Positions 886-59,821 are shown, numbered from the stretch's first letter. The stretch: 64,000 bases of DNA from Nanobdellota archaeon (GCA_038044525.1 JBBSZV010000033.1:7131-71130); one strand, 5' to 3'. Program-made: numbers and translations. The notes: generated from the letters alone by a model not told the origin.

Positions 886-2393
886 TTTATTTCTGTCTCC
901 TCTAGCCGGCATAAGCGGCGGTAGACGATAGTTTCATTTTGATAAGCTATCTCAAAACAGCGTTTAGTGGCATACGGCAATTCTTCTTTCAGGTTATATT
1001 TTTCCTTCGCTGAAGGTGTCAAGACAAAATATTCCAACCGGTATTTCTCCGCTATTTCCACTGCTTGGGTCTGGAAGTGGGTGGTGAATAGAGAAGTGAG
1101 ATCTTGGAATCTTTTTTCCGCATCATCCACCAGCATGAAGCGGTCGTCGATGAGATTCTTGCGCTGCGCGTAGTAAGTTATCAGATGCCCTTCATCAAGC
1201 GTGGCGACTATGACCGTATCTACGGGAGAATTTTCCCAAAGCCAGCGGAAAGCGCCGATCTCTTCTTCCGAAGGGCGTTCCTGCAGCAAAGCGGCATTTA
1301 TGGCCGGAAGCACGGTCGAGATAAGGAGCAGGCTCAGGATCGTAGGGAGCAGGTATCTCTGATACTGCGCCAGCTTAGTCTTGTGGAAATATTTTTCTAA
1401 GTCCAAATAAAATGAGGAAAACAGGATGGCCAATATCACGCTGAAAAAAGCCAGCGATTGCCGGAAGCGGATCAGCCGGAGCCAGGTAAGGAGCGTCGCA
1501 GCGATGACCAGGCTGATCAACAGGAAAGCTTTCTGATTTTTTATCTGGAACAATGAGCGGTACACGACGACCGCGCCGGCAAGAAACGGTATGATGCTGA
1601 CCAGCACCAACGCTTCAGCCAAGGAGAATTTCGGGAAGTATTGGGCGATGATGCCTGAAGGCACATTCTGCCAAAGGAACGACCAGCCTTCCTCCAACAG
1701 CGATTCTTTGAAAAACAAGAACTGCACCCACAGGAAAAGGAACAGCGAGAAAAACATTATCTCTATCTCTGCCCGGTTTATCTTTTTTCCTTCCAGCAGC
1801 GAGAGAAGGACGTAGATGCCGAATCCTATCAGCAACAGCGCTGCCAAGGGGCTGGTCAGCGACAATAAAAGAAAAGAGGCGATGTAGACATATAGATACT
1901 TTGACGGATGATAATCTTTCCCCGCAGGTTCCTGGAGATTTAGGAAGGCATATATGACTATAAATGTAAGCGGGACAAATAAAGTGGTGACCGTGAATGA
2001 ATTGGTGGCGAATAATATGGGCAGGAATCCGGCGATGAAAGCGGCCAATAACGCTCCCGTCTCATGATGATAGATCTTTCTGCTGATGAGGTATGAAGTT
2101 ATGATCAGGCTGCTTATGAGCAGGTTGGGCAGGATTTTAGCGACGATCTCTAACGGGAGAAATAATCCGAAGAAGGCCATGAAATAATGGAAAAATGGCA
2201 GGAAGCGCATTTCCCTGCCGCCATATGAAAGCCCGTCATGGTACTGGGGCAATCCCGTGTCTAAAATGTGGTCGGTCTGGCGGAGATGGAAGTATGATTC
2301 GTAAGTGAATGTCGGCATCCAAAAAGCCAGAAAAAGGCGTATAAGTACTATACTGATAAAAAGTGCAATCAATATCTTGGTGTTCCGTTCCAT
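882..2393 (-). CDS. Integral membrane protein of about 12 TM helices with a C-terminal soluble domain. Possibly a GT-C fold glycosyltransferase (PMT/ArnT-like). It is not AglB, since no WWDYG motif is present.
   Basis: 503 aa with many hydrophobic helices. The first loop reads HLRQTDHILDTG. The C-terminal region is hydrophilic. It is in tandem with a paralog. Confidence 0.4.
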   Translation of the reverse strand: MERNTKILIALFISIVLIRLFLAFWMPTFTYESYFHLRQTDHILDTGLPQYHDGLSYGGREMRFLPFFHYFMAFFGLFLPLEIVAKILPNLLISSLIITSYLISRKIYHHETGALLAAFIAGFLPILFATNSFTVTTLFVPLTFIVIYAFLNLQEPAGKDYHPSKYLYVYIASFLLLSLTSPLAALLLIGFGIYVLLSLLEGKKINRAEIEIMFFSLFLFLWVQFLFFKESLLEEGWSFLWQNVPSGIIAQYFPKFSLAEALVLVSIIPFLAGAVVVYRSLFQIKNQKAFLLISLVIAATLLTWLRLIRFRQSLAFFSVILAILFSSFYLDLEKYFHKTKLAQYQRYLLPTILSLLLISTVLPAINAALLQERPSEEEIGAFRWLWENSPVDTVIVATLDEGHLITYYAQRKNLIDDRFMLVDDAEKRFQDLTSLFTTHFQTQAVEIAEKYRLEYFVLTPSAKEKYNLKEELPYATKRCFEIAYQNETIVYRRLCRLEETEIK

Positions 2394-2515
2394 CTCTTTT
2401 TAAGCATAAGAATACTTTTTATTTTATAAATTATGTGATTAAGGCAGGATTCTGGCGGGAGCCATAACCTCATCCTAAAATATTAGAAATATTTATATTT
2501 GATCTGCTTTGTGAA

Positions 2516-3193
2516 GTGAGCATGGATAAAGTCCCAACGGGAGCAGGATTTCTGGATAATCTTCTGGAAGGCGGATATGATAATGACATCATCACCACTA
2601 TTTTCGGCCCTGCCGGAGCAGGGAAAACTAATTTCTGTATCCTGGCGGCAGTAAGGATGGCCGAATCCGGGAAAAAAGTGCTCTTTGTGGATACCGAAGG
2701 CGGGATCGCAGTAGAGAGGATAAAACAGATCAGCTCTGATCACGAAAAAGTGTTGCAGAGGATATTTTTCTTTAATCCGGTAACTTTTGCCGAACAGAAT
2801 GAGGCGTTTGAAAAGCTGAACGGGCTGGTCAATGAAAGCGTAGGGATGATAGTGGTGGATTCCATCTCCATGCTGTACCGCCTAGAATTAGGGAAAAATG
2901 AGGAAGTGTATGAAGTAAATTCCGCGTTGGGGAGGCAGATGGCTTATCTGGTAGAGATCGCCCGGAAGAAGAAGATACCGGTTTTGATAACCAACCAAGT
3001 ATATACTGATTTTGATCATCGTGATGAAGTAAAGATGGTCGGCGGGGATCTGCTTAGATATGGCAGCAAGTGCCTGATCGAGCTTAAAACTTTCCATAAC
3101 TGCCGCGGCCTCATCCTCAGGAAACACCGTTCACTGCCGGAAGGTCGGGAAGCCAGGTTCAGGATTGTGCAGAAAGGGATGGAGGAAGTCTGA
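2516..3193 (+). CDS. radB: RadB/KaiC-like RecA-superfamily ATPase (archaeal RadB-like).
   Basis: The Walker A motif reads GPAGAGKTNFCILAA. Other RecA-core-like motifs are VLFVDTEGG and MIVVDSISMLYR followed by VLITNQV. A length of 225 aa is typical of RadB. Confidence 0.6.
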   Translation: MSMDKVPTGAGFLDNLLEGGYDNDIITTIFGPAGAGKTNFCILAAVRMAESGKKVLFVDTEGGIAVERIKQISSDHEKVLQRIFFFNPVTFAEQNEAFEKLNGLVNESVGMIVVDSISMLYRLELGKNEEVYEVNSALGRQMAYLVEIARKKKIPVLITNQVYTDFDHRDEVKMVGGDLLRYGSKCLIELKTFHNCRGLILRKHRSLPEGREARFRIVQKGMEEV

Positions 3194-3546
3194 TGGACCC
3201 AGATTATCTGATCATATCGATGATCGCTTTGAATCCCAGATACGAAGCGGCGGCGCAGCATAGTTTTTCGCGCCAGGATTTCACCAGCCGGGTGCTTTCA
3301 AAATATCCTGATGAGATTCTTCAACAGGCCAGGATAATGCCGCATGATTTATACGGTGATTCCCACGCCTTTGACCAGGCATTGGCGGCGCTGGTCCGCA
3401 GAGGGGTATTGAAGTATTGGACTGACGGCTCTTTGAGTTGGAATTTTCCTTTGGTGCCACGGGAGTATTTTTGGACTTATATCCGTCCGGAATTAGATGA
3501 AGTGGGATTCGGAAAATTAGAGAAGTTTGCCCTTTCGGTGTGGTAG
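3193..3546 (+). CDS. Hypothetical protein. Its start overlaps the radB stop (ATGA).
   Basis: 117-aa ORF with a coding-like composition and translational coupling. No recognisable motif. Confidence 0.3.
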   Translation: MDPDYLIISMIALNPRYEAAAQHSFSRQDFTSRVLSKYPDEILQQARIMPHDLYGDSHAFDQALAALVRRGVLKYWTDGSLSWNFPLVPREYFWTYIRPELDEVGFGKLEKFALSVW

Positions 3547-3697
3547 CGAGGTTTGACTGAATTATTCGCAAAATCTTTATAAAGTGCCGTTGAAATCAGG
3601 AGTATAAAGCCGACATCTTTCCTGAGAGTTGGGAAGATACAGCTGTGTTGAGGCAAAAGAAAAACACAGACAAGAAGACTTATTCTTGTTTGTATAA

Positions 3698-4321
3698 TTG
3701 AGCGAGGCAAACAAAATGACTGAACAACAAGAAGAATTATTGCTCGATTCTAACGAGTATCTGAAATCTGGCATCCATATAGGAACCAAATTCAAGAACA
3801 AATACATGGCCAATTTCATCTATAAGACCAGGCCGGACGGATTAAGCGTCTTGAACCTGAAAGAGATTGACAAGAGGCTGGGCTTGGCAGCAAACCTGCT
3901 GGCTAAATATGAGCCGCAGGATATCTTGGTCGTCAGCAGAAGGGAAAACGGATGGAAAGGCCTGAAGAAGCTGCAGGAGCTTACCGGAATAAGGATCATC
4001 GTCGGCAGATATCCGCCAGGAATATTGACCAATACTAACCTAGCCACTTTCTGGGAGCCAAAAATAATCTTTGTCTGCGATCCGTGGACGGACAAGAATG
4101 CGGTGCAGGATGCGGCTAAGATCGGAATTCCGGTCATCGCTCTCTGCGACACCAACAATCAGGCTAATGATGTCGATCTGGTAGTTCCCTGCAACAATAA
4201 AGGGAAAAAATCAGTCGGATTGGTATTTTATGTCATCGCCCGTGAATTCATGCGCAAGAAAGGATTGCTGCGCGGCGATGAAGAAATGCCGGTCAAGATG
4301 GAAGATTTCATCGAGGAATAG
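3698..4321 (+). CDS. rps2: 30S ribosomal protein uS2, archaeal/eukaryotic SA type.
   Basis: Contains LLDSNEYLKSGIHIGTK, FIYKTRPDGLSVLNL, ILVVSRRENG, GRYPPGILTN and IPVIALCDTNN. It aligns along its full length with archaeal S2. Confidence 0.9.
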   Translation: MSEANKMTEQQEELLLDSNEYLKSGIHIGTKFKNKYMANFIYKTRPDGLSVLNLKEIDKRLGLAANLLAKYEPQDILVVSRRENGWKGLKKLQELTGIRIIVGRYPPGILTNTNLATFWEPKIIFVCDPWTDKNAVQDAAKIGIPVIALCDTNNQANDVDLVVPCNNKGKKSVGLVFYVIAREFMRKKGLLRGDEEMPVKMEDFIEE

Positions 4322-4348
4322 ATTTTTTAATTTATTTTTTTAATTATT

Positions 4349-4906
4349 ATGGCAGCTACCGCAAGTTCTTCTTGGAAAGAACTGGATGGATATGTTAGTA
4401 AGTTAATCCAGGTCTTTCCGAATTTGCAGATCTGGAAAGATATTGAGCGGAAACCGATAACTGTTTCTTCAATAGATCATTTGATCAGTGATGGCCTGAA
4501 CTTGATAGAAGATTCTACCATTACCGTTTTTACCGGCGGAATCGTTATTGAAGAGGAAACAAAAAAGATGGTCATCTTGTTAAAAGCAGGACTTGATTCC
4601 TACAACCGTGATGTAACTCTTTTTCATGAATTAGCTCATCTTCATCATCCGATTTACTTAAGCAGAAGAAGTAATGAATTTGACGGTTTTGTTTCCTATG
4701 CTGAGGAAACTGCAAGAGAAGCGATTACAGAATGGCTGGGAAGAAAAGCGAGAGCTGATCCGGAATTATTACGGCATGCGGTTCTTTCTTTCGGTTTGGA
4801 AGCGCAGGTTTATGATAAATCCAGTTACCAAGCTTTTCAGAAAATAATAAGGGGCCAGCAATGTTTCCCCTTCATGGAACAAGAATATCCCGTCTTGATG
4901 GATTAA
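4349..4906 (+). CDS. Hypothetical protein with an HExxH motif. Possibly an ImmA/IrrE (DUF955)-like zinc metallopeptidase.
   Basis: The motif LFHELAHLHH resembles the ImmA/IrrE HELGHLLLH. There is no other support. Confidence 0.3.
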   Translation: MAATASSSWKELDGYVSKLIQVFPNLQIWKDIERKPITVSSIDHLISDGLNLIEDSTITVFTGGIVIEEETKKMVILLKAGLDSYNRDVTLFHELAHLHHPIYLSRRSNEFDGFVSYAEETAREAITEWLGRKARADPELLRHAVLSFGLEAQVYDKSSYQAFQKIIRGQQCFPFMEQEYPVLMD

Positions 4907-4955
4907 CATTTTCGTTGCATAACTTTTAAAAACGTTTTTCCTTCTGTTTTAATAC

Positions 4956-5924
4956 ATGAAGAAAATAGTGGTCATCGGCGGAGGGACCGGAAATTTCACC
5001 GTTCTCAGCGGGCTTAAGAAATATAACATCGACCTGAGCGCGGTAGTGTCCATGGCGGATGACGGAGGAAGCACCGGAATCCTTCGCGACGAATTAGGCG
5101 TTTTACCTCCCGGCGATGTGCGGCAGTGTCTCGTGGCATTATCAGATTCCAGCAGATTGATGAGAAGCCTGATGAATTATCGGTTTGAGAATGGAAGCTT
5201 GCAGGGGCACAGCTTCGGCAATCTGCTCCTGTCAGCGTTAGAGAAAGTCACCGGCAGCTTTGACCGGGCGGTGGAAGAGATGGGCCGCATCATGGTCATC
5301 AAGGGAAAAGTGATTCCGGTGACGACTAACAAAGTCCATCTGAAAATGATCCTCCGCAGCAATAAGATGCTGGAAGGAGAGCATGAGATAGATGTGTCGT
5401 CGGAGATCGACCGTGGTTTCCAGAGCATTTATCTGGAGCCGTTTCCGCAGGCGAACACCAGGGCCATAGACCAAATAATGACTGCTGACCTGGTGGTGTT
5501 AAGTCCGGGAGATCTTTATACGTCGTTAATCCCGAATCTGCTGGTCGACGGTGTAAGCAAGGCCTTGCGCGAGACTGGCGCGAAGAAAGCATTGGTGGTC
5601 AATCTGATGAACAAGCACGGGCATACCACTAATTTCAAAGCCGGAGATTACCTGCGCGAGATCAAACGTTTTGTGGGGAAGGACGTTTTTGATTACATCA
5701 TCGTCAATAACAGCAAACTGCCGGAAGAATTAATCCAGCTATACGAGACGGAAGGAGATCCGGTGGAAAATGATTTAATCCCTGATCCGCGGGTTATTGC
5801 AGCGGATGTTTTAAGCAACGAAACAGTCCCGTTGCAGAAAACTGACACCCTGAAACGGAGCCTGATCCGCCACGATTCCCGCAAATTAGCTGAGGAGTTG
5901 ATGAAAATTGTTGATAGTTTTTGA
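4956..5924 (+). CDS. CofD/YvcK-family protein (UPF0052; 2-phospho-L-lactate transferase-like or gluconeogenesis factor-like).
   Basis: The N-terminus reads KIVVIGGGTGNFTVLSGLK followed by MADDGGSTGILRDELGVLPPGDVRQCLVALS. This GGGTG...DDGGS signature is characteristic of the CofD/YvcK family. Confidence 0.7.
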   Translation: MKKIVVIGGGTGNFTVLSGLKKYNIDLSAVVSMADDGGSTGILRDELGVLPPGDVRQCLVALSDSSRLMRSLMNYRFENGSLQGHSFGNLLLSALEKVTGSFDRAVEEMGRIMVIKGKVIPVTTNKVHLKMILRSNKMLEGEHEIDVSSEIDRGFQSIYLEPFPQANTRAIDQIMTADLVVLSPGDLYTSLIPNLLVDGVSKALRETGAKKALVVNLMNKHGHTTNFKAGDYLREIKRFVGKDVFDYIIVNNSKLPEELIQLYETEGDPVENDLIPDPRVIAADVLSNETVPLQKTDTLKRSLIRHDSRKLAEELMKIVDSF

Positions 5925-6378
5925 CCTTGATGATACTTTGTTCCATACCGGCGGACAGATGAGGTATGAGACCAGATGGCAGGATGTGAAAAGCATCACT
6001 CCTTTTTCCGGCGTGCATGATTTTCTCAGTTCCTTTCCGGCAAAAAAGATACTGCTTACTTTTGAAACTGATGACGGCCTTCAGGATATGAAAATAAATC
6101 ATCTGGGAATCCGTTCTTTTTTTGATGAAATCTTGATATGTCATTCTAATGAAGAAAAGAAACAGTGCTTGGGAAATCTCAAACGCAAATATTCTGATGA
6201 AGAGATCTGCGTGGTCGGCGACCGGATCGACGCGGAAATCCAATACGGGAATGAGCTTGGTCTGAAGACCGTGCGGTTGAGCTGCGGAAAATATAAAGAT
6301 ATGATGCCGCAGCATGAATCACAAAAAGCAAACCATACTATAACTGATTTTTCTCAATTAAGGAGCGTTTTAAAATGA
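5908..6378 (+). CDS. HAD-superfamily hydrolase/phosphatase.
   Basis: N-terminal DxDxT motif (IVFDLDDTLF). Motif IV-like VVGDRIDAEIQ. It overlaps the end of the upstream gene. Confidence 0.55.
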   Translation: MLIVFDLDDTLFHTGGQMRYETRWQDVKSITPFSGVHDFLSSFPAKKILLTFETDDGLQDMKINHLGIRSFFDEILICHSNEEKKQCLGNLKRKYSDEEICVVGDRIDAEIQYGNELGLKTVRLSCGKYKDMMPQHESQKANHTITDFSQLRSVLK

Positions 6379-45732: not shown

Positions 45733-46299
45733 CTATCTTTCCTTAACTTTCCCTTCTACTAAATTAACTACCTTAGAAGGCCGCCCTTTCTTTTCGCCTT
45801 CGTAGATGATGAAGTCTACTCCGTCTTTAATGGTTTGATCCAAATCTTCCAATGAAGTCATGAATGGCTGTCCGGAACGATTGGCGGAAGTTGTAATAAT
45901 CGGAAAACCCAGTTCTTCGACCACGTCGCCGAACCAATGGCCGGGGATTCTTACACCGATGGTTTCTTGGTCTAAATTTACGTTTTTAGCGATAGCGTTC
46001 TTATTTTTTAGTTTCAGGATGAGCGTGTAAGGGCCGGGAAGCTTATTGAGCAAATCCTTTGCTTCCTTAGTAATTATGCAATTTTCGGTGATCCATTCTT
46101 TTGAAGGGGCGATGATTGAGAATGGGTTTGCTGGGCGCTCTTTTAATCTCCTGATTTTTCCCACTGCGTTTTTGTCAAGTGCATTGCAGCCGATGCCGTA
46201 GATGGTGTCGGTCGGATAGATGAATACTGCTCCATCACGGATCCGTCCGGCTATCTCGGCATAGCGCAGGCGAAGTTCAGCTTTGGTAAGAGTTTCCAT
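45733..46299 (-). CDS. tsaC: L-threonylcarbamoyladenylate synthase (TsaC/YrdC/Sua5 family; t6A biosynthesis).
   Basis: Contains FIYPTDTIYGIGCNALDKNAVGKIRRLKERPANPFSIIAPS and PGPYTLIL. Confidence 0.75.
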   Translation of the reverse strand: METLTKAELRLRYAEIAGRIRDGAVFIYPTDTIYGIGCNALDKNAVGKIRRLKERPANPFSIIAPSKEWITENCIITKEAKDLLNKLPGPYTLILKLKNKNAIAKNVNLDQETIGVRIPGHWFGDVVEELGFPIITTSANRSGQPFMTSLEDLDQTIKDGVDFIIYEGEKKGRPSKVVNLVEGKVKER

Positions 46300-46858
46300 T
46301 AATTAGGGTGGTTATTACTGATTTATAATCTTTCCGAAAAAAAACGCGGCCGTTTCCGGCCACGAAAAGGGTAGTGAGGTGTGTGGTCTTAAGAAATAGC
46401 GTAGTAGCAATCGTAATCATCTATGAACGTCTGCTTGTTCTGCTTCTGCGCCGGCTCTTCGTACTTTTGCATAAGGTACAGAATCCGGTCTCTTATATTG
46501 TTCATGTTATTATTGTTCATGTTATTCATCATAACCACCCCCCGCTTAGTTGGTAATCAAAAGAACCTTCTTTAGTCATGACCGTTTTTTGGGTCAATTC
46601 CCGCACCTGCCTTTCAAACAATTGTTGAATTGTTCTTGTCGTAAGATCCATCATGGTTTATACCACCTCTGTTTTTTGATAAATAATCTGATGTTAGAAG
46701 TTGTTTATATAGAAGACCCGGACTTGTCTAGTGCGGGAGTGGATAATCTAAAGAGCTTAAAAATCTTAAATTTTTAGTAATTAAGCCTTATTGGGCGTTT
46801 GTCCGGTGGTTGTCCAGTGGGTCATGGAAGAAATTTTCAAAATGTAAACTCTTTCAGT

Positions 46859-47239
46859 TTATTTAACCAAAACACCATTCAGAGTAGCTTCTTGCCCAGG
46901 TCGGGAAGTAATCCTGACTTTCCCCAGCTTAGTTTCCACAACAGCACCTTTAGTGATAATGTTTCGTCTTACCAGATGTGGGTTGGCTGGGTTTCCTACT
47001 ACGTTAAGAATTTCAACTTTAGTAGCTTTTCCTTTATTATCACAAACGTTAACGTTGCTGGCAGTCAGAAGAGAATGTTTAGTCCGTCCGCCGCGTATTC
47101 TGGTAGTTTTGACTTTCCGTTCTTTCTCCAGTTTAGTATTGGCAGGAAAGCCGGCCAATTCGCGCAGCCTTTTAGTCCTGGTATAATGATACCTTCCGCC
47201 GGATGGTTTCCGGTTGGATCTTCGTTGTGAACGTGCCAT
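46859..47239 (-). CDS. rps8e: 30S ribosomal protein S8e.
   Basis: Contains MARSQRRSNRKPSGGRYHYTRTKRLRELAG and IRGGRTKHSLL. The family is restricted to archaea and eukaryotes. Confidence 0.85.
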   Translation of the reverse strand: MARSQRRSNRKPSGGRYHYTRTKRLRELAGFPANTKLEKERKVKTTRIRGGRTKHSLLTASNVNVCDNKGKATKVEILNVVGNPANPHLVRRNIITKGAVVETKLGKVRITSRPGQEATLNGVLVK

Positions 47240-47291: not shown

Positions 47292-47618
47292 TTAAAACAA
47301 ATCGTCGTCAATCGCATCGAAATATGAGATTGGCTCCAAATCTAAATCAAAGGGGTCGTACGTTTGTTTTTGCGGTTGTTTTCTTTCCCAAACCAGCGAG
47401 TGATAAATAGGCCTTAAAATATCCCGCGGGCTCGGATACAAGACGCGCACATTTCTCATCTCATATCTCAAAGGCAGCTCTCCCTCTTCTACGAATGTTC
47501 CCCGCGCTGAACAAATAATTTTTGTTTGGTCATCCCTGATAGTCACATATTCCGGCCCTTCCGGGACAAATATTACTTTTTCATCGATAGCGATATCTTC
47601 AATAATGCGCAAAATCAT
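47292..47618 (-). CDS. Hypothetical protein.
   Basis: 108-aa ORF. Its start overlaps the upstream LonB stop by 4 nt (ATGA). Confidence 0.3.
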
Positions 47619-48286
47619 TTTTTCCTTCGGAATATTTTTTCTTTAAGTTTCTCATTCCCATTCCAATCCAAGGCATGTCCCATCACTTCTTCAATAGTAT
47701 CTACGGGGATAATTTTTACTTTTACCAATTTCTCTTCATCGATAACAATATCCTGGAGGTTTGATTTAGGAACAATGACCGTTTTCATCCCGGCATCGAT
47801 GGCTGCTTCGACCTTGGAAGAAACGCCGCCGACAGGAAGGACTTCTCCGCGGACGGACAGCGAACCGGTCATGGCCACGTCTTGTTTTATGGGTATCTCT
47901 TTCAATGCAGATATGATGGCGGTCGCCACGGCGATGGAAGCTGAATCTCCTTCCACGCCCTCATGGGTCTGCAGGAACTGCACGAATATATCTTTAGTCT
48001 CTTTGATATCTTCGCCGAAATATTTTTGGATGATAGCAGACACGTTCTTGACTGCTTCCTTGGCGATCTCTCCGAGTTTTCCGGTAGCAATAATCTCTGC
48101 TTTCTTCCCGCCGGGAGTCACTTCTGCTTCTATCGGCAGTAAAATTCCCGAGTATGCAGAACCGCCGCCGATGACCGCCAATCCATTGACTCTTCCGACG
48201 CGCAGGCCGGAAGTGATGATCACTTCGTATTCTTTCTTGCGTTCGATATATTTGTCTGCCATCTGCTGTTCCAGGGGCCTAGCCAA
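47615..48286 (-). CDS. lonB: Lon protease proteolytic domain (archaeal LonB C-terminal part).
   Basis: Contains [13 protein letters not shown] and [16 protein letters not shown] (catalytic Ser), followed by [21 protein letters not shown] (catalytic Lys). It is in the same frame as the upstream ATPase ORF, separated from it by a single TAG. Confidence 0.7.
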
Positions 48287-48307
48287 TATTTTTGCTTCCT
48301 TGACGTG

Positions 48308-49573
48308 CTATCTGTTCACAAACTCGGATTCTTCTTCTCGTGCTAAGTCGCCGGCAGCCCGAACTAATCCGCCCAGGCCGCGCAGGTGCAACGTAAGGCG
48401 CCCCTTGTGGTTGGCTCTCCTCCGCGCTTCTTCCACGATCGCTTTCAGTGCAGAAAGATCAAAATGGGGAATTTTTCTGTCTTCCTTTTTTATTTCCTGG
48501 GCAACAAAACGGGCGATCTTAGTCCGGTTCTCCTTAGTGTCAGGCATGGTTTCGTTCATATATACTTCATACCCGTATCCCCTGATCCTGGAACGCAGGG
48601 CTGGATGCATATTCTTGATGGTCTCGGGATTTCCTGCGGCGACCAAAATAAAATCGCAGGGCACCGGTTCGGTCCGTACCATCGCGCCGGCAGAGCGTTC
48701 AGACTGTCCGGTGATGGGGAATTTTTTTTCCTGCAAGGCAGAGAGCATTTCTTGCTGTGTTCTGGGATGAAGCGTAGCGATTTCGTCGATGAATAACACT
48801 CCCTTGTGTGCTTTATGGATCATTCCGGCCACGACTCGCTGGTTTGCCGGAGTTCCTAATCCGCCTGATTGAAACGGGTCGTGCAGTACATCACCTAACA
48901 ATGCTCCTGCGTGTGCGCCGGTAGCATCAAAGAATTGCGCTTGTTTTTTGTCAAAATTGTCTACGATAACTTTTGGTGCGATAACTTTAGATGTTTGGAA
49001 CATTCTCGGCCCCATATTTATAGATATGGCAAATCCAGCAAGAAACATCATGCCGCCTAAGAAAAAAGCGGTGAACATCAAATCTGATTGATAATGATAG
49101 CGGATCCACCAAGGCGCAATGAAAGTTATGATAGCGACAATGAACAGCAGAAAACTATTATTTTTCATAGACTTATTAGCATCCAACTGATAACTTAATG
49201 CTTCTTCTCTCCCTTTTCCGGCAGGCAGGGTTTTGATGTAAGGATTATTTTCATCATTAGGGTTGGGATAAGCAAGGGTATCTTTCAAGTCGGATTTGGG
49301 AAGAAGTTCGGCCAAGGCAATTCCCAGCATGGATTTTCCTGTTCCTGGCTCGCCTATCAATAGGACGTGCCGGCGCTGCAGTGCAGCTTTTTTAATTATT
49401 TTGACTGCTTCTTCCTGGCCCAGAACTTGGTCTACTATTTTATCAGGTACCTTTATGTTCTTAGTGGTGATATTTTTAGCTGATTCCATACTTACCTTAG
49501 AACATCTATCACTCGATGGGTGTAAATTCCAGTCTTGATTTAAAAAGATTGCGGAGAAATGGGGGAGATTCAA
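48308..49573 (-). CDS. lonB: Archaeal membrane-bound LonB AAA+ ATPase module with the characteristic two-TM insertion between Walker A and Walker B.
   Basis: Walker [25 protein letters not shown] insert [17 protein letters not shown]...[17 protein letters not shown]. Walker [12 protein letters not shown]. It ends at an in-frame TAG (48308-48310). Confidence 0.75.
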
Positions 49574-52185: not shown

Positions 52186-52229
52186 TATCCGTAATATTTT
52201 TAAACAGGCTTAAATCCTTTTGCTGTATT

Positions 52230-52319
52230 GGGCTCGTGGTCTAGTGGCTATGATGCTGCCCTTACAAGGCGGATGTCGCCGGTTCGAGATGATTGTCAAC
52301 GAAAATCCGGCCGGGCCCA
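52230..52319 (+). tRNA. tRNA-Val (anticodon UAC) with a 17-nt non-canonical intron in the T-loop (about position 58/59).
   Basis: Manual cloverleaf: acceptor GGGCTCG/CGGGCCC plus discriminator A. D-arm GTC-TAGTGGCTAT-GAT. Anticodon stem CTGCC/GGCGG with loop CTTACAA. Variable loop ATGTC. T-stem GCCGG/CCGGC. These enclose 24 nt (a TTCGA..AT loop plus 17 nt GATGATTGTCAACGAAA). 90 - 17 = 73 nt mature. Confidence 0.7.
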
Positions 52320-52411
52320 TTCATCTTTAGACAACGGCGTGAAATCCATTTTATTATCCGCAAAGCCTTCTTTACAAAATATTTATCAATATTCCTCATT
52401 TCAACCACTTA

Positions 52412-53666: not shown

Positions 53667-54164
53667 ATGGGAATCTTCAATTGGTTAGCCGGTAAAGCAG
53701 CTTCAGAGAAATCTGAAGAAGAGAAATTGCTGATTGATTTAAGCGAAGCGGGTAAGTATTTAGATCGTGCTAGAAAATGGTCTATTCTAGATAACCGGCC
53801 GACAGGCCCTAAAAGAGATGCGGTTTCCAGGCAATATGGTCTAGCTATTACTGAAGCACTTAAATGGCTCAAAGAAGCAAGGAAAAGAGTATCGTTAATT
53901 ATTGCGAAATTAGAGTCTAAAAAAACTGTTACCGGTTATAGAAAAATGGGTCATTTATCAGATGATGGGGTGGAATTTCTGAAGTTAATGTTAGAAATAG
54001 ACTTGCAGTTATCTAAACAAATCAGAAACATTAGTACTGTAGTTTCATTGCCAGGATGGTTATATACGAAGGAGGGTTTTCATTCAGTTCTAACTTCCTA
54101 TTCTAAACGAGTACTTAAGTATCGCGAAAAAATCAAAGAGCATTTGAAAAAGATAGATGACTGA
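53667..54164 (+). CDS. Hypothetical protein.
   Basis: 165-aa ORF, no motif. Confidence 0.3.
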   Translation: MGIFNWLAGKAASEKSEEEKLLIDLSEAGKYLDRARKWSILDNRPTGPKRDAVSRQYGLAITEALKWLKEARKRVSLIIAKLESKKTVTGYRKMGHLSDDGVEFLKLMLEIDLQLSKQIRNISTVVSLPGWLYTKEGFHSVLTSYSKRVLKYREKIKEHLKKIDD

Positions 54165-59675: not shown

Positions 59676-59821
59676 TGGGCCCACCCGGACTTTCGGTATC
59701 AAGCATTTCGAACCGGGGATCTCCTCGATACAGAAAATGCCAGCGTTTTAAGCGCTTTGCATTTGCGTCAACGAGATGTCATCTGCGGCGCATCTCTGCG
59801 TAGCCGCTAGACCATGAGCCC
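59676..59821 (-). tRNA. tRNA-Val (anticodon GAC) with three introns: D-loop about 19 nt, anticodon loop 37/38 about 37 nt, T-loop 17 nt. The mature length is 73 nt.
   Basis: On the minus strand: acceptor GGGCTCA/TGGGCCC plus A. D-arm GTC-TAGCGGCTA[CGCAGAGATGCGCCGCAGA]T-GAC. Anticodon stem TCTCG/CGAGG with loop TTGACG[37-nt intron]T. Variable loop AGATC. T-stem CCCGG/CCGGG enclosing TTCGA[AATGCTTGATACCGAAA]GT. The T-loop intron position and sequence pattern match the other tRNA-Val. Confidence 0.6.

Follow-up and report, generated by a model that had tools for sequence, protein, structure and literature searches.

Two tRNA-Val genes with introns in the T-loop

The locus at 52230-52319 of the window (throughout, the whole 64-kb stretch of DNA that was analyzed) reads GGGCTCGTGGTCTAGTGGCTATGATGCTGCCCTTACAAGGCGGATGTCGCCGGTTCGAGATGATTGTCAACGAAAATCCGGCCGGGCCCA on the plus strand and had been proposed to be a 90-nt tRNA-Val(UAC) gene whose T-loop is interrupted by a 17-nt insert. 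Deleting these 17 nt from the T-loop leaves a perfect 73-nt tRNA-Val(TAC) in ARAGORN, as the proposal required, and no tRNA is called when the insert is retained. The spliced cloverleaf drawn by ARAGORN has a 7-bp acceptor stem, a D-arm, an anticodon loop CUUACAA, a 5-nt variable region, a T-stem GCCGG/CCGGC, and discriminator A73. CCA is not encoded, as TTC directly follows A73. A better fold without an intron was looked for and none was found, since neither ARAGORN nor Rfam makes a call on the unspliced gene and the spliced gene is a textbook tRNA-Val(TAC). The positions of all features are given in Table 1.

ARAGORN found zero tRNAs in the unspliced 64-kb window, whether run in its default mode or with the anticodon-loop intron mode (-i). 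Rfam reported no tRNA in the window at the gathering score and no usable match on the unspliced genes at E-value thresholds; on the local stretch its tRNA model reached 20.5 bits against a cut-off of 29, with the T-arm skipped. A strict structural scan, whose requirements were T8, GC-rich stems in the acceptor and T-arm, and a T-loop with no more than ~70 extra bases, returned just two matches in the window, the tRNA-Val(UAC) gene and a tRNA-Val(GAC) gene 7.4 kb from it; genes disrupted in other ways, for example split or permuted ones, could have escaped it. A more permissive structural scan of the window returned nearly all noise, and no second tRNA-Val(UAC) gene was seen in the 64 kb.

Two independent Hainich assemblies (L001 and L002) contain this gene at full length and in an unchanged orientation, the full sequence having been read in L001, and a third (L003) has the T-arm with an identical insert. 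An assembly artifact was ruled out because the identical gene recurs in these independent assemblies. Two other explanations of the insert were also set aside, a group I or II self-splicing intron, for which 17 nt is far too short, and a long variable arm, as the insert sits inside the T-loop.

A second tRNA-Val had been said to carry an insert of the same length at the same place, and this insert was found in the T-loop of the tRNA-Val(GAC). In the form first described, AATGCTTGATACCGAAA, its single occurrence is at 59691-59707 (minus strand), against 0 expected by chance. The gene contains three introns, of which the earlier reading had listed the T-loop one only. Removal of the D-loop and T-loop inserts yields an ARAGORN Val(gac) with a 37-nt anticodon-loop intron and a 73-nt mature tRNA, and the precursor folds at -59.3 kcal/mol (z = -3.8). 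The D-loop intron folds with a helix GCGGC/GCCGC, a 3-nt 5' bulge UAC, and an inner hairpin GCA-GAGA-UGC; its boundaries are not fixable by ARAGORN because the program accepts many D-loop deletion variants. This gene, too, was missed by every tRNA finder and Rfam search run.

Table 1. Positions of the two tRNA-Val genes and their parts within the window.
Feature	Position	Strand	Description
tRNA-Val(UAC) gene	52230-52319	+	90-nt precursor; sequence read; in-silico splicing gives a 73-nt ARAGORN tRNA-Val(tac)
TATA-like box ATATTTTTAAA	52194-52204	+	Inferred promoter, -36 to -26 of the tRNA-Val(UAC) gene; read by eye
5' exon of tRNA-Val(UAC)	52230-52288	+	tRNA positions 1-59; anticodon TAC at 52263-52265; exon end TTCGAG
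Central 4-bp helix, exon strand	52283-52286	+	T54 T55 C56 G57; pairs with 52300-52303 in the minimum-energy fold
T-loop intron of tRNA-Val(UAC), ATGATTGTCAACGAAAA	52289-52305	+	17 nt; position 59/60 by the bulge-helix-bulge rule
Central helix, intron strand	52300-52303	+	CGAA; followed by the 3-nt 3' bulge A-A/T (52304-52306), cut before T60
3' exon of tRNA-Val(UAC)	52306-52319	+	Positions 60-73; T60, T-stem 3' strand CCGGC, acceptor 3' strand CGGGCCC, discriminator A73
tRNA-Val(GAC) gene	59676-59821	-	146-nt precursor with three introns; structural scan, ARAGORN after insert removal
T-loop intron of tRNA-Val(GAC), ATGCTTGATACCGAAAG	59690-59706	-	17 nt; position 59/60; helix TTCG/CGAA, 3' bulge A-G/T
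Anticodon-loop intron of tRNA-Val(GAC)	59729-59765	-	37 nt; boundaries +/-1 nt
D-loop intron of tRNA-Val(GAC)	59782-59800	-	~17-19 nt; boundaries +/-1-2 nt

Splice position and splicing motif

In canonical archaeal pre-tRNAs a central 4-bp helix forms between positions 32-35 and the intron, and the cut is made at 37/38 (PMC4090602). The T-arm, with its 5-bp stem and 7-nt loop, has the shape of the anticodon arm, so by equivalence the helix would involve positions 54-57 and the cut would fall at 59/60. In the minimum-energy folds of both the 90-nt RNA and the T-arm alone, a UUCG(54-57)/CGAA 4-bp helix is stacked on the T-stem, and a 3-nt bulge A-A-U60 separates CGAA from the T-stem 3' strand. 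The boundaries first given for the intron (GATGATTGTCAACGAAA, 52288-52304, position 58/59) are one base off by this geometry, which yields ATGATTGTCAACGAAAA at 59/60. The intron-less T-loops of relatives (the GAC gene of L194 and the UAC gene of L195) read TTCGAGT, which equals the predicted 59/60 product. From folding and from these comparisons, the splice position is predicted to be 59/60, the T-arm counterpart of 37/38, with a mature T-loop UUCGAGU. Position 59/60 is a documented noncanonical tRNA intron site (PMC4090602).

The bulge-helix-bulge fold on which the original prediction could be checked was recovered in part: the 3' bulge, the central helix, and the T-stem are present, and the strict 5' site is absent. 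Folding of the tRNA-Val(UAC) precursor did not give the strict 5' 3-nt bulge followed by an inner helix. The 5' splice site (A58-G59/A) instead lies within an 11-13-nt loop closed by the central helix, as a 1x2 internal or an open loop. The inner helix of the UAC intron has 2-3 bp and is out of register by one base, and that of the paralog has only 2 bp. When 66 related T-arms were folded, the layout of 3' bulge plus central helix was predicted in 41 and the strict hBHBh' motif in only 4. Because its 5' site fits the published relaxed classes hBH and BHL (PMC5829648), we place the intron in a relaxed subclass, and its splicing motif as modeled is a relaxed hBH, near bulge-helix-loop, rather than a strict hBHBh'. 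Introns of the relaxed class (hBH/BHL) are reported to need a broad-specificity endonuclease (PMC5829648); no splicing endonuclease was found with Pfam or NCBIfam among the 20 window ORFs scanned.

Exon conservation and helix covariation

The exons of the UAC gene are near-identical in its orthologs at five syntenic loci (L127, L128, L129, L131, and L193), being conserved almost base for base while the neighboring protein is merely 66-72% identical. The central helix was followed across 20 T-loop inserts that had been collected without any constraint on the insert 3' end, and in all 20 the four bases located 2 nt before T60 pair with positions 54-57. The pairing is TTCG/CGAA in 11 inserts, TTCG/TGAA in 1, TTCA/TGAA in 4, TTCA/TGGA in 2, TTCA/TGGG in 1, and TTCA/TGAG in 1, so with zero mismatches at these 20 sites G57:C switches to A57:U. 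Near-invariant exons, an insert that is free in length and sequence, and a helix that covaries are together the signature of a spliced intron.

The insert might alternatively be retained, in which case the locus would be a pseudogene or would produce a tRNA-like RNA with an expanded T-loop, and the fact that standard tRNA finders and Rfam make no call there agrees with this. However, the exons have been kept across inserts whose length ranges from 16 to 81 nt or more, covariation preserves the pairing to 54-57, the window has no other tRNA-Val(UAC), and the gene is preceded by a TATA-like box at -36 to -26. We regard retention of the insert as very improbable. The sequence comparisons and folds make it highly probable that 52230-52319 is a functional tRNA-Val(UAC) gene, with a 17-nt archaeal intron of the protein-spliced kind dividing its T-loop at 59/60.

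Turnover and exchange of T-loop introns in syntenic relatives

The two tRNA-Val genes belong to a syntenic gene order of LonB, ScpA, PKD, tRNA-Val UAC, methyltransferase, DEAD helicase, S-layer, AI-2E transporter, an ORF of ~150 aa, and tRNA-Val GAC. The T-loop insert of the UAC gene is 16 nt long in L131, 17 nt in the window, 27 nt in L194, 37 nt in L127, 50 nt in L128, 81 nt in L129/L130, and at least 80 nt in L193, and there is none in L195; the sequences of the ortholog inserts are unrelated, and their site is a common one. Introns of 16-81+ nt already sit at 59/60 in the five closest UAC orthologs, and also in the three GAC orthologs recovered. Like the gene in the window, the GAC orthologs of L128, L129, and L193 contain three inserts. 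More distant genes without a T-loop intron are the GAC gene of L194 (17800-17905, minus strand), which has an anticodon-loop intron only, and the UAC gene of L195 (9622-9734, minus strand), which has D-loop and anticodon-loop introns and a plain TTCGAGT T-loop, so intron presence is polymorphic within the clade. At two further syntenic loci, L125 and L132, the tRNA is not present in the fetched stretch.

Within single genomes, the introns of the two Val genes can be closely similar. In L128 the UAC and GAC introns are identical at 32 of 44 positions, compensatory hairpin changes included, and 0 of 5000 shuffles were as good; in L193 they are identical at 19 of 22 positions at the 5' end (0 of 2000 shuffles). 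The family shared by both Val genes of L128, TATAAGGG...CAACCC, is of the GAC type and is also found in the GAC gene of L129. The family shared by both genes of L193, AAGC.AGCAATCTA...TTAGTTTGCAGC, is of the UAC type and also occurs in the UAC genes of L127 and L129. L129 itself has unrelated introns in its two Val genes, one family per gene. Between L128 and L193 the GAC gene bodies and D-loop introns are nearly identical, and the T-loop introns are of different families. Intron relationships therefore conflict with tRNA gene orthology: the L128 UAC intron groups with the GAC introns of L128 and L129, and the L193 GAC intron groups with the UAC introns of L193, L127, and L129.

One shared family per genome, differing between L128 and L193, means that copying between paralogs occurs in this clade. 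On these alignments, each of the two close lineages had an intron body replaced with that of the paralog, and the directions were opposite. The first T-stem pair is gene-specific in every genome, G49:C65 in UAC and C49:G65 in GAC, so any conversion tract must be very short. The original prediction envisaged an intron gain that was then propagated between paralogous tRNAs. Its second half is supported by the paralog copying that is clear in L128 and L193. The first half is contradicted, since 59/60 is already occupied in the orthologs; what moves is sequence, by replacement or homogenization, and there was no fresh gain followed by spread.

The pattern also bears on whether the introns of the two Val genes simply descend, with no later exchange, from one intron that predates the UAC/GAC divergence. 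Both genes do carry an insert at exactly 59/60 in most close relatives, as such descent would have it. But orthologous introns are often unrelated while paralogous introns in one genome match, L128 and L193 each have one family in both genes and not the same one, and L129 has one per gene. Intron turnover is also far too fast to have kept a signal from before the isoacceptor split, and more distant relatives lack the intron altogether. We consider purely vertical inheritance improbable for the introns of the window.

Similar introns are not limited to Val paralogs. At L157 (714-1403, plus strand) a Val tRNA and two other neighboring tRNAs of different identities have similar 32-nt T-loop introns (TTGGTTG..AGTTC.A.GCTTGC) that are identical at 21 of 26 positions, with no shuffle as good in 2000-5000 trials. 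We read this cluster as showing within-genome spread across tRNAs of different identity. Across 15 within-contig pairs, introns are on average more similar than in random between-contig pairs (permutation P 0.005).

Similarity of the two 17-nt introns in the window

The two T-loop introns of the window had been noted to share the pattern TTCGA.ATG.TTG...CGAAA.T, and the pattern is indeed present in both. TTCGA, CGAA, and T60 are fixed by exon and helix, which leaves 11 free positions, and 7 of these are identical. Length-normalized local alignment scores are a poor measure across introns of very unequal length, and shuffle tests of each pair were used instead. For the window pair, shuffling gives P = 0.018-0.039 in global or ungapped comparison, and a local-alignment test is not significant (P 0.14). 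Compared with all between-genome pairs the empirical P is 0.017, and among short introns it is 0.005. Of 64 other introns, none matches either one better than its partner does. Taken alone, the similarity is only suggestive of relatedness.

The intron could be real and the resemblance nonetheless owed to chance and to the shared constraints on minimal T-loop introns, namely an A-rich start, the CGAA helix strand, AT-rich composition, and minimal loop size, with copying playing no part. Just 11 positions are free in the window pair, the shuffle P is merely 0.018-0.039 and the local-alignment P 0.14, and the L129 paralogs carry unrelated introns, all of which fit this account. So does a bias at the intron start, the first base being A in ~21 of 26 and the first two bases AT in ~9 of 26 of the ARAGORN-confirmed archaeal matches, among the matches listed from the genome scan described below. 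The wider set of 66 introns, however, is less skewed at the first base (A 28, T 25), and 0.5% of 190 between-genome short-intron pairs are equally similar. The two introns are also mutual best matches out of 64 and have exactly the same length, and paralog-to-paralog copying is unambiguous in L128 and L193. We judge chance and constraint to be a real but lesser possibility.

Exchange between the paralogs, followed by divergence, is the reading of the window pair that we favor by a modest degree; it is credible because copying of this kind is seen in the relatives. The window UAC intron also has TTGTCAA in common with the L129 UAC intron (P 0.035 before multiple-comparison correction). The TTGTCAA match is too weak to support descent of the window intron from an L129 UAC-type intron by deletion.

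Distribution of T-loop introns and the host lineage

Species-representative genomes were scanned with the pattern CCGGTTCGA-N6-20-CGAAA-N-TCCGG, which gave at least 120 matches. Among the matches listed, ~90 are chance bacterial matches without a tRNA and ~30 are archaeal loci, ~22 of them in Woesearchaeota or Nanoarchaeota metagenome-assembled genomes; the other archaeal loci listed belong to Thermoproteota, Hadarchaeales, Nitrososphaera, and a few genomes labeled Methanosarcinales. The proportions among the matches listed are not a measure of frequency. When the archaeal matches listed were spliced in silico at 59/60, ARAGORN called tRNAs for Val, Pro, Arg, Gly, Ile, Lys, Tyr, and Phe. A metagenome scan limited to Val-type acceptor ends found 60 loci, whose inserts are 15-44 nt long and highly varied in sequence. 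Relatives and metagenomes together contain dozens of tRNAs with an insert at 59/60, 15-90 nt long and unrelated in sequence. T-loop introns had been described as rare; with at least about 30 archaeal genome loci and 60 metagenome loci carrying them, and with 59/60 a documented site (PMC4090602), that description does not hold. Judging from these scans, T-loop introns are common in this lineage and poorly annotated.

The genes that flank the tRNA genes are archaeal, encoding LonB, an S-layer protein, and PKD-domain proteins, and NCBIfam matches include PACE-CTERM S-layer, AMP phosphorylase, and RelA/SpoT. Homologs of the adjacent downstream methyltransferase are named Nanoarchaeota, Nanoarchaeia, or Woesearchaeota, and an exact protein match leads to 0.2-µm metagenomes of Hainich groundwater well H41. 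We assign the host to a tiny Woesearchaeota-type DPANN archaeon of groundwater, with 43% GC.

Other features of the region

At 52186-52411 the tRNA-Val(UAC) gene of the window and the methyltransferase downstream of it share a strand, and in 7 of 7 relatives compared (L127, L128, L129/L130, L131, L193, L194, and L195) the two are on opposite strands. The upstream region conserved in the relatives (ccaaaaaRttaataaataaaca...gactcttatt) is absent from the window, and the conserved 3' flank reads TTCATYTTT. The arrangement resembles a small inversion confined to the gene, with a new promoter.

The LonB protease gene of the window (47615-49573) has an in-frame TAG at 48308-48310 on the minus strand where the L129 ortholog has Glu, a GAG to TAG change in the context NR*HVKEAK (TKEHVKKAK in L129). 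It could reflect a pseudogene, a sequence error, or read-through. In L128 the LonB ortholog (4272-6344, minus strand) contains an intein domain (Pfam Intein_splicing), which none of the other relatives has.

Between a Sua5-like gene and that of ribosomal protein S8e, the plus-strand interval 46300-46870 is ~68% conserved in three relatives and contains a repeated motif, TTGTCCAGTGG, together with tRNA-like GC-rich pieces. Rfam gave no match on the region 46250-46900. The interval may hold small ORFs or an unknown RNA. Two weak, sub-threshold Rfam matches to archaeal C/D-box RNAs were also seen on the plus strand, one to sR24 at 4694-4741 (24.1 bits, cut-off 36) and one to sR20 at 53931-53984 (21.5 bits, cut-off 44).

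Proposed splicing pathway and intron history

The tRNA-Val(UAC) gene would be transcribed from the TATA-like box ATATTTTTAAA at -36 to -26. In the precursor, U54-G57 would pair with CGAA near the intron 3' end, extending the 5-bp T-stem by a 4-bp helix. From what is known of archaeal tRNA splicing, a broad-specificity splicing endonuclease (EndA) is expected to cut both sites, and an RtcB-type ligase to join the exons into the 7-nt T-loop UUCGAGU. CCA would be added after transcription.

In the history of the clade, 59/60 has been occupied for a long time in both Val genes, and intron sequence turns over fast, at times being replaced with that of the other Val gene. Such replacement would probably proceed by short-tract gene conversion, with CCGGTTCGA and CGAAA.TCCGG serving as the identical flanks. 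What the intron might be good for is speculation; one benefit could be that it breaks up conserved T-arm DNA as a target of integrating elements.

More broadly, we put it at about even that the 59/60 introns of Woesearchaeota-type DPANN are exchangeable cassettes, in which the site stays stably occupied and the body is overwritten by the copy of another tRNA gene. Overwriting would run in both directions between Val isoacceptor genes and also among tRNAs of different identity, as at L157, with tract boundaries inside the 9-11-nt exon and helix flanks. If so, this would extend intron transposition beyond Thermoproteales, and L128 versus L193 and the window pair would be natural before-and-after pairs from which the mechanism, DNA-level microhomology conversion or RNA-level reverse splicing, might be read.

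Relationship to known archaeal tRNA introns

Noncanonical bulge-helix-bulge introns at 59/60 of archaeal tRNAs were described by Marck & Grosjean 2003 and Sugahara et al. 2007/2008 (reviewed in PMC4090602). The window intron resembles them in its position and in its predicted architecture, in which the T-stem serves as outer helix, loop and intron pair in a 4-bp central helix, and the 3' cut lies in a 3-nt bulge. It is also short, the published median being 12-25 nt, and T-loop introns co-occur here with D-loop and 37/38 introns, up to three per tRNA, as noncanonical introns do elsewhere. It differs in its host, which is a Woesearchaeota-type DPANN archaeon and not one of the Thermoproteales, Thaumarchaeota, or Nanoarchaeum, and in a 5' site that folds as especially degenerate, near the bulge-helix-loop extreme.

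Similar introns in different tRNAs have been reported from Thermoproteales under the term intron transposition (PMC4090602, PMC4033280). As there, same-position introns of one genome share sequence against the relationships of the tRNA bodies in L128, L193, and L157, and probably in the window. In contrast to Thermoproteales, the clearest cases here are reciprocal replacements between neighboring isoacceptor genes whose 59/60 site was already occupied, and the L128/L193 pattern is closer to what short-tract gene conversion would leave than to the entry of introns at empty sites.

DPANN lineages with an L3-loop EndA show increased tRNA gene disruption, for which manual curation has been urged (PMC5829648). 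The Val genes share multi-intron structure and relaxed motifs with the disrupted tRNA genes of DPANN archaea that have L3-loop or epsilon2-type endonucleases (PMC5829648, PMC3239211). Neither 59/60 Val introns nor their exchange are described in those two papers. By analogy, multi-intron DPANN tRNA genes with relaxed motifs should need a broad-specificity endonuclease.

Introns at 59/60, multi-intron tRNAs, relaxed motifs, and similar introns across tRNAs are thus all documented (PMC4090602, PMC4033280, PMC8450103), and the T-loop intron of tRNA-Val(UAC) adds no new kind of element. It does matter for annotation, as default bacterial-mode ARAGORN, its intron option, and Rfam together returned zero tRNAs from a window with two essential Val tRNA genes. 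Published intron models have been trained on other phyla; the bulge-helix-bulge models of tRNAscan-SE 2.0 were trained solely on Crenarchaeota/Euryarchaeota and Thaumarchaeota (PMC8450103). Since the tools miss both Val genes, DPANN tRNAs will be undercounted unless T-loop and D-loop introns are modeled. The clade also offers a compact natural system. Many of its metagenome-assembled genomes have the two Val genes in synteny at a distance of 7 kb, and against fixed exons the introns change fast in presence, length, and sequence, with visible copying of their bodies from one paralog to the other. This system bears on how archaeal tRNA introns spread.
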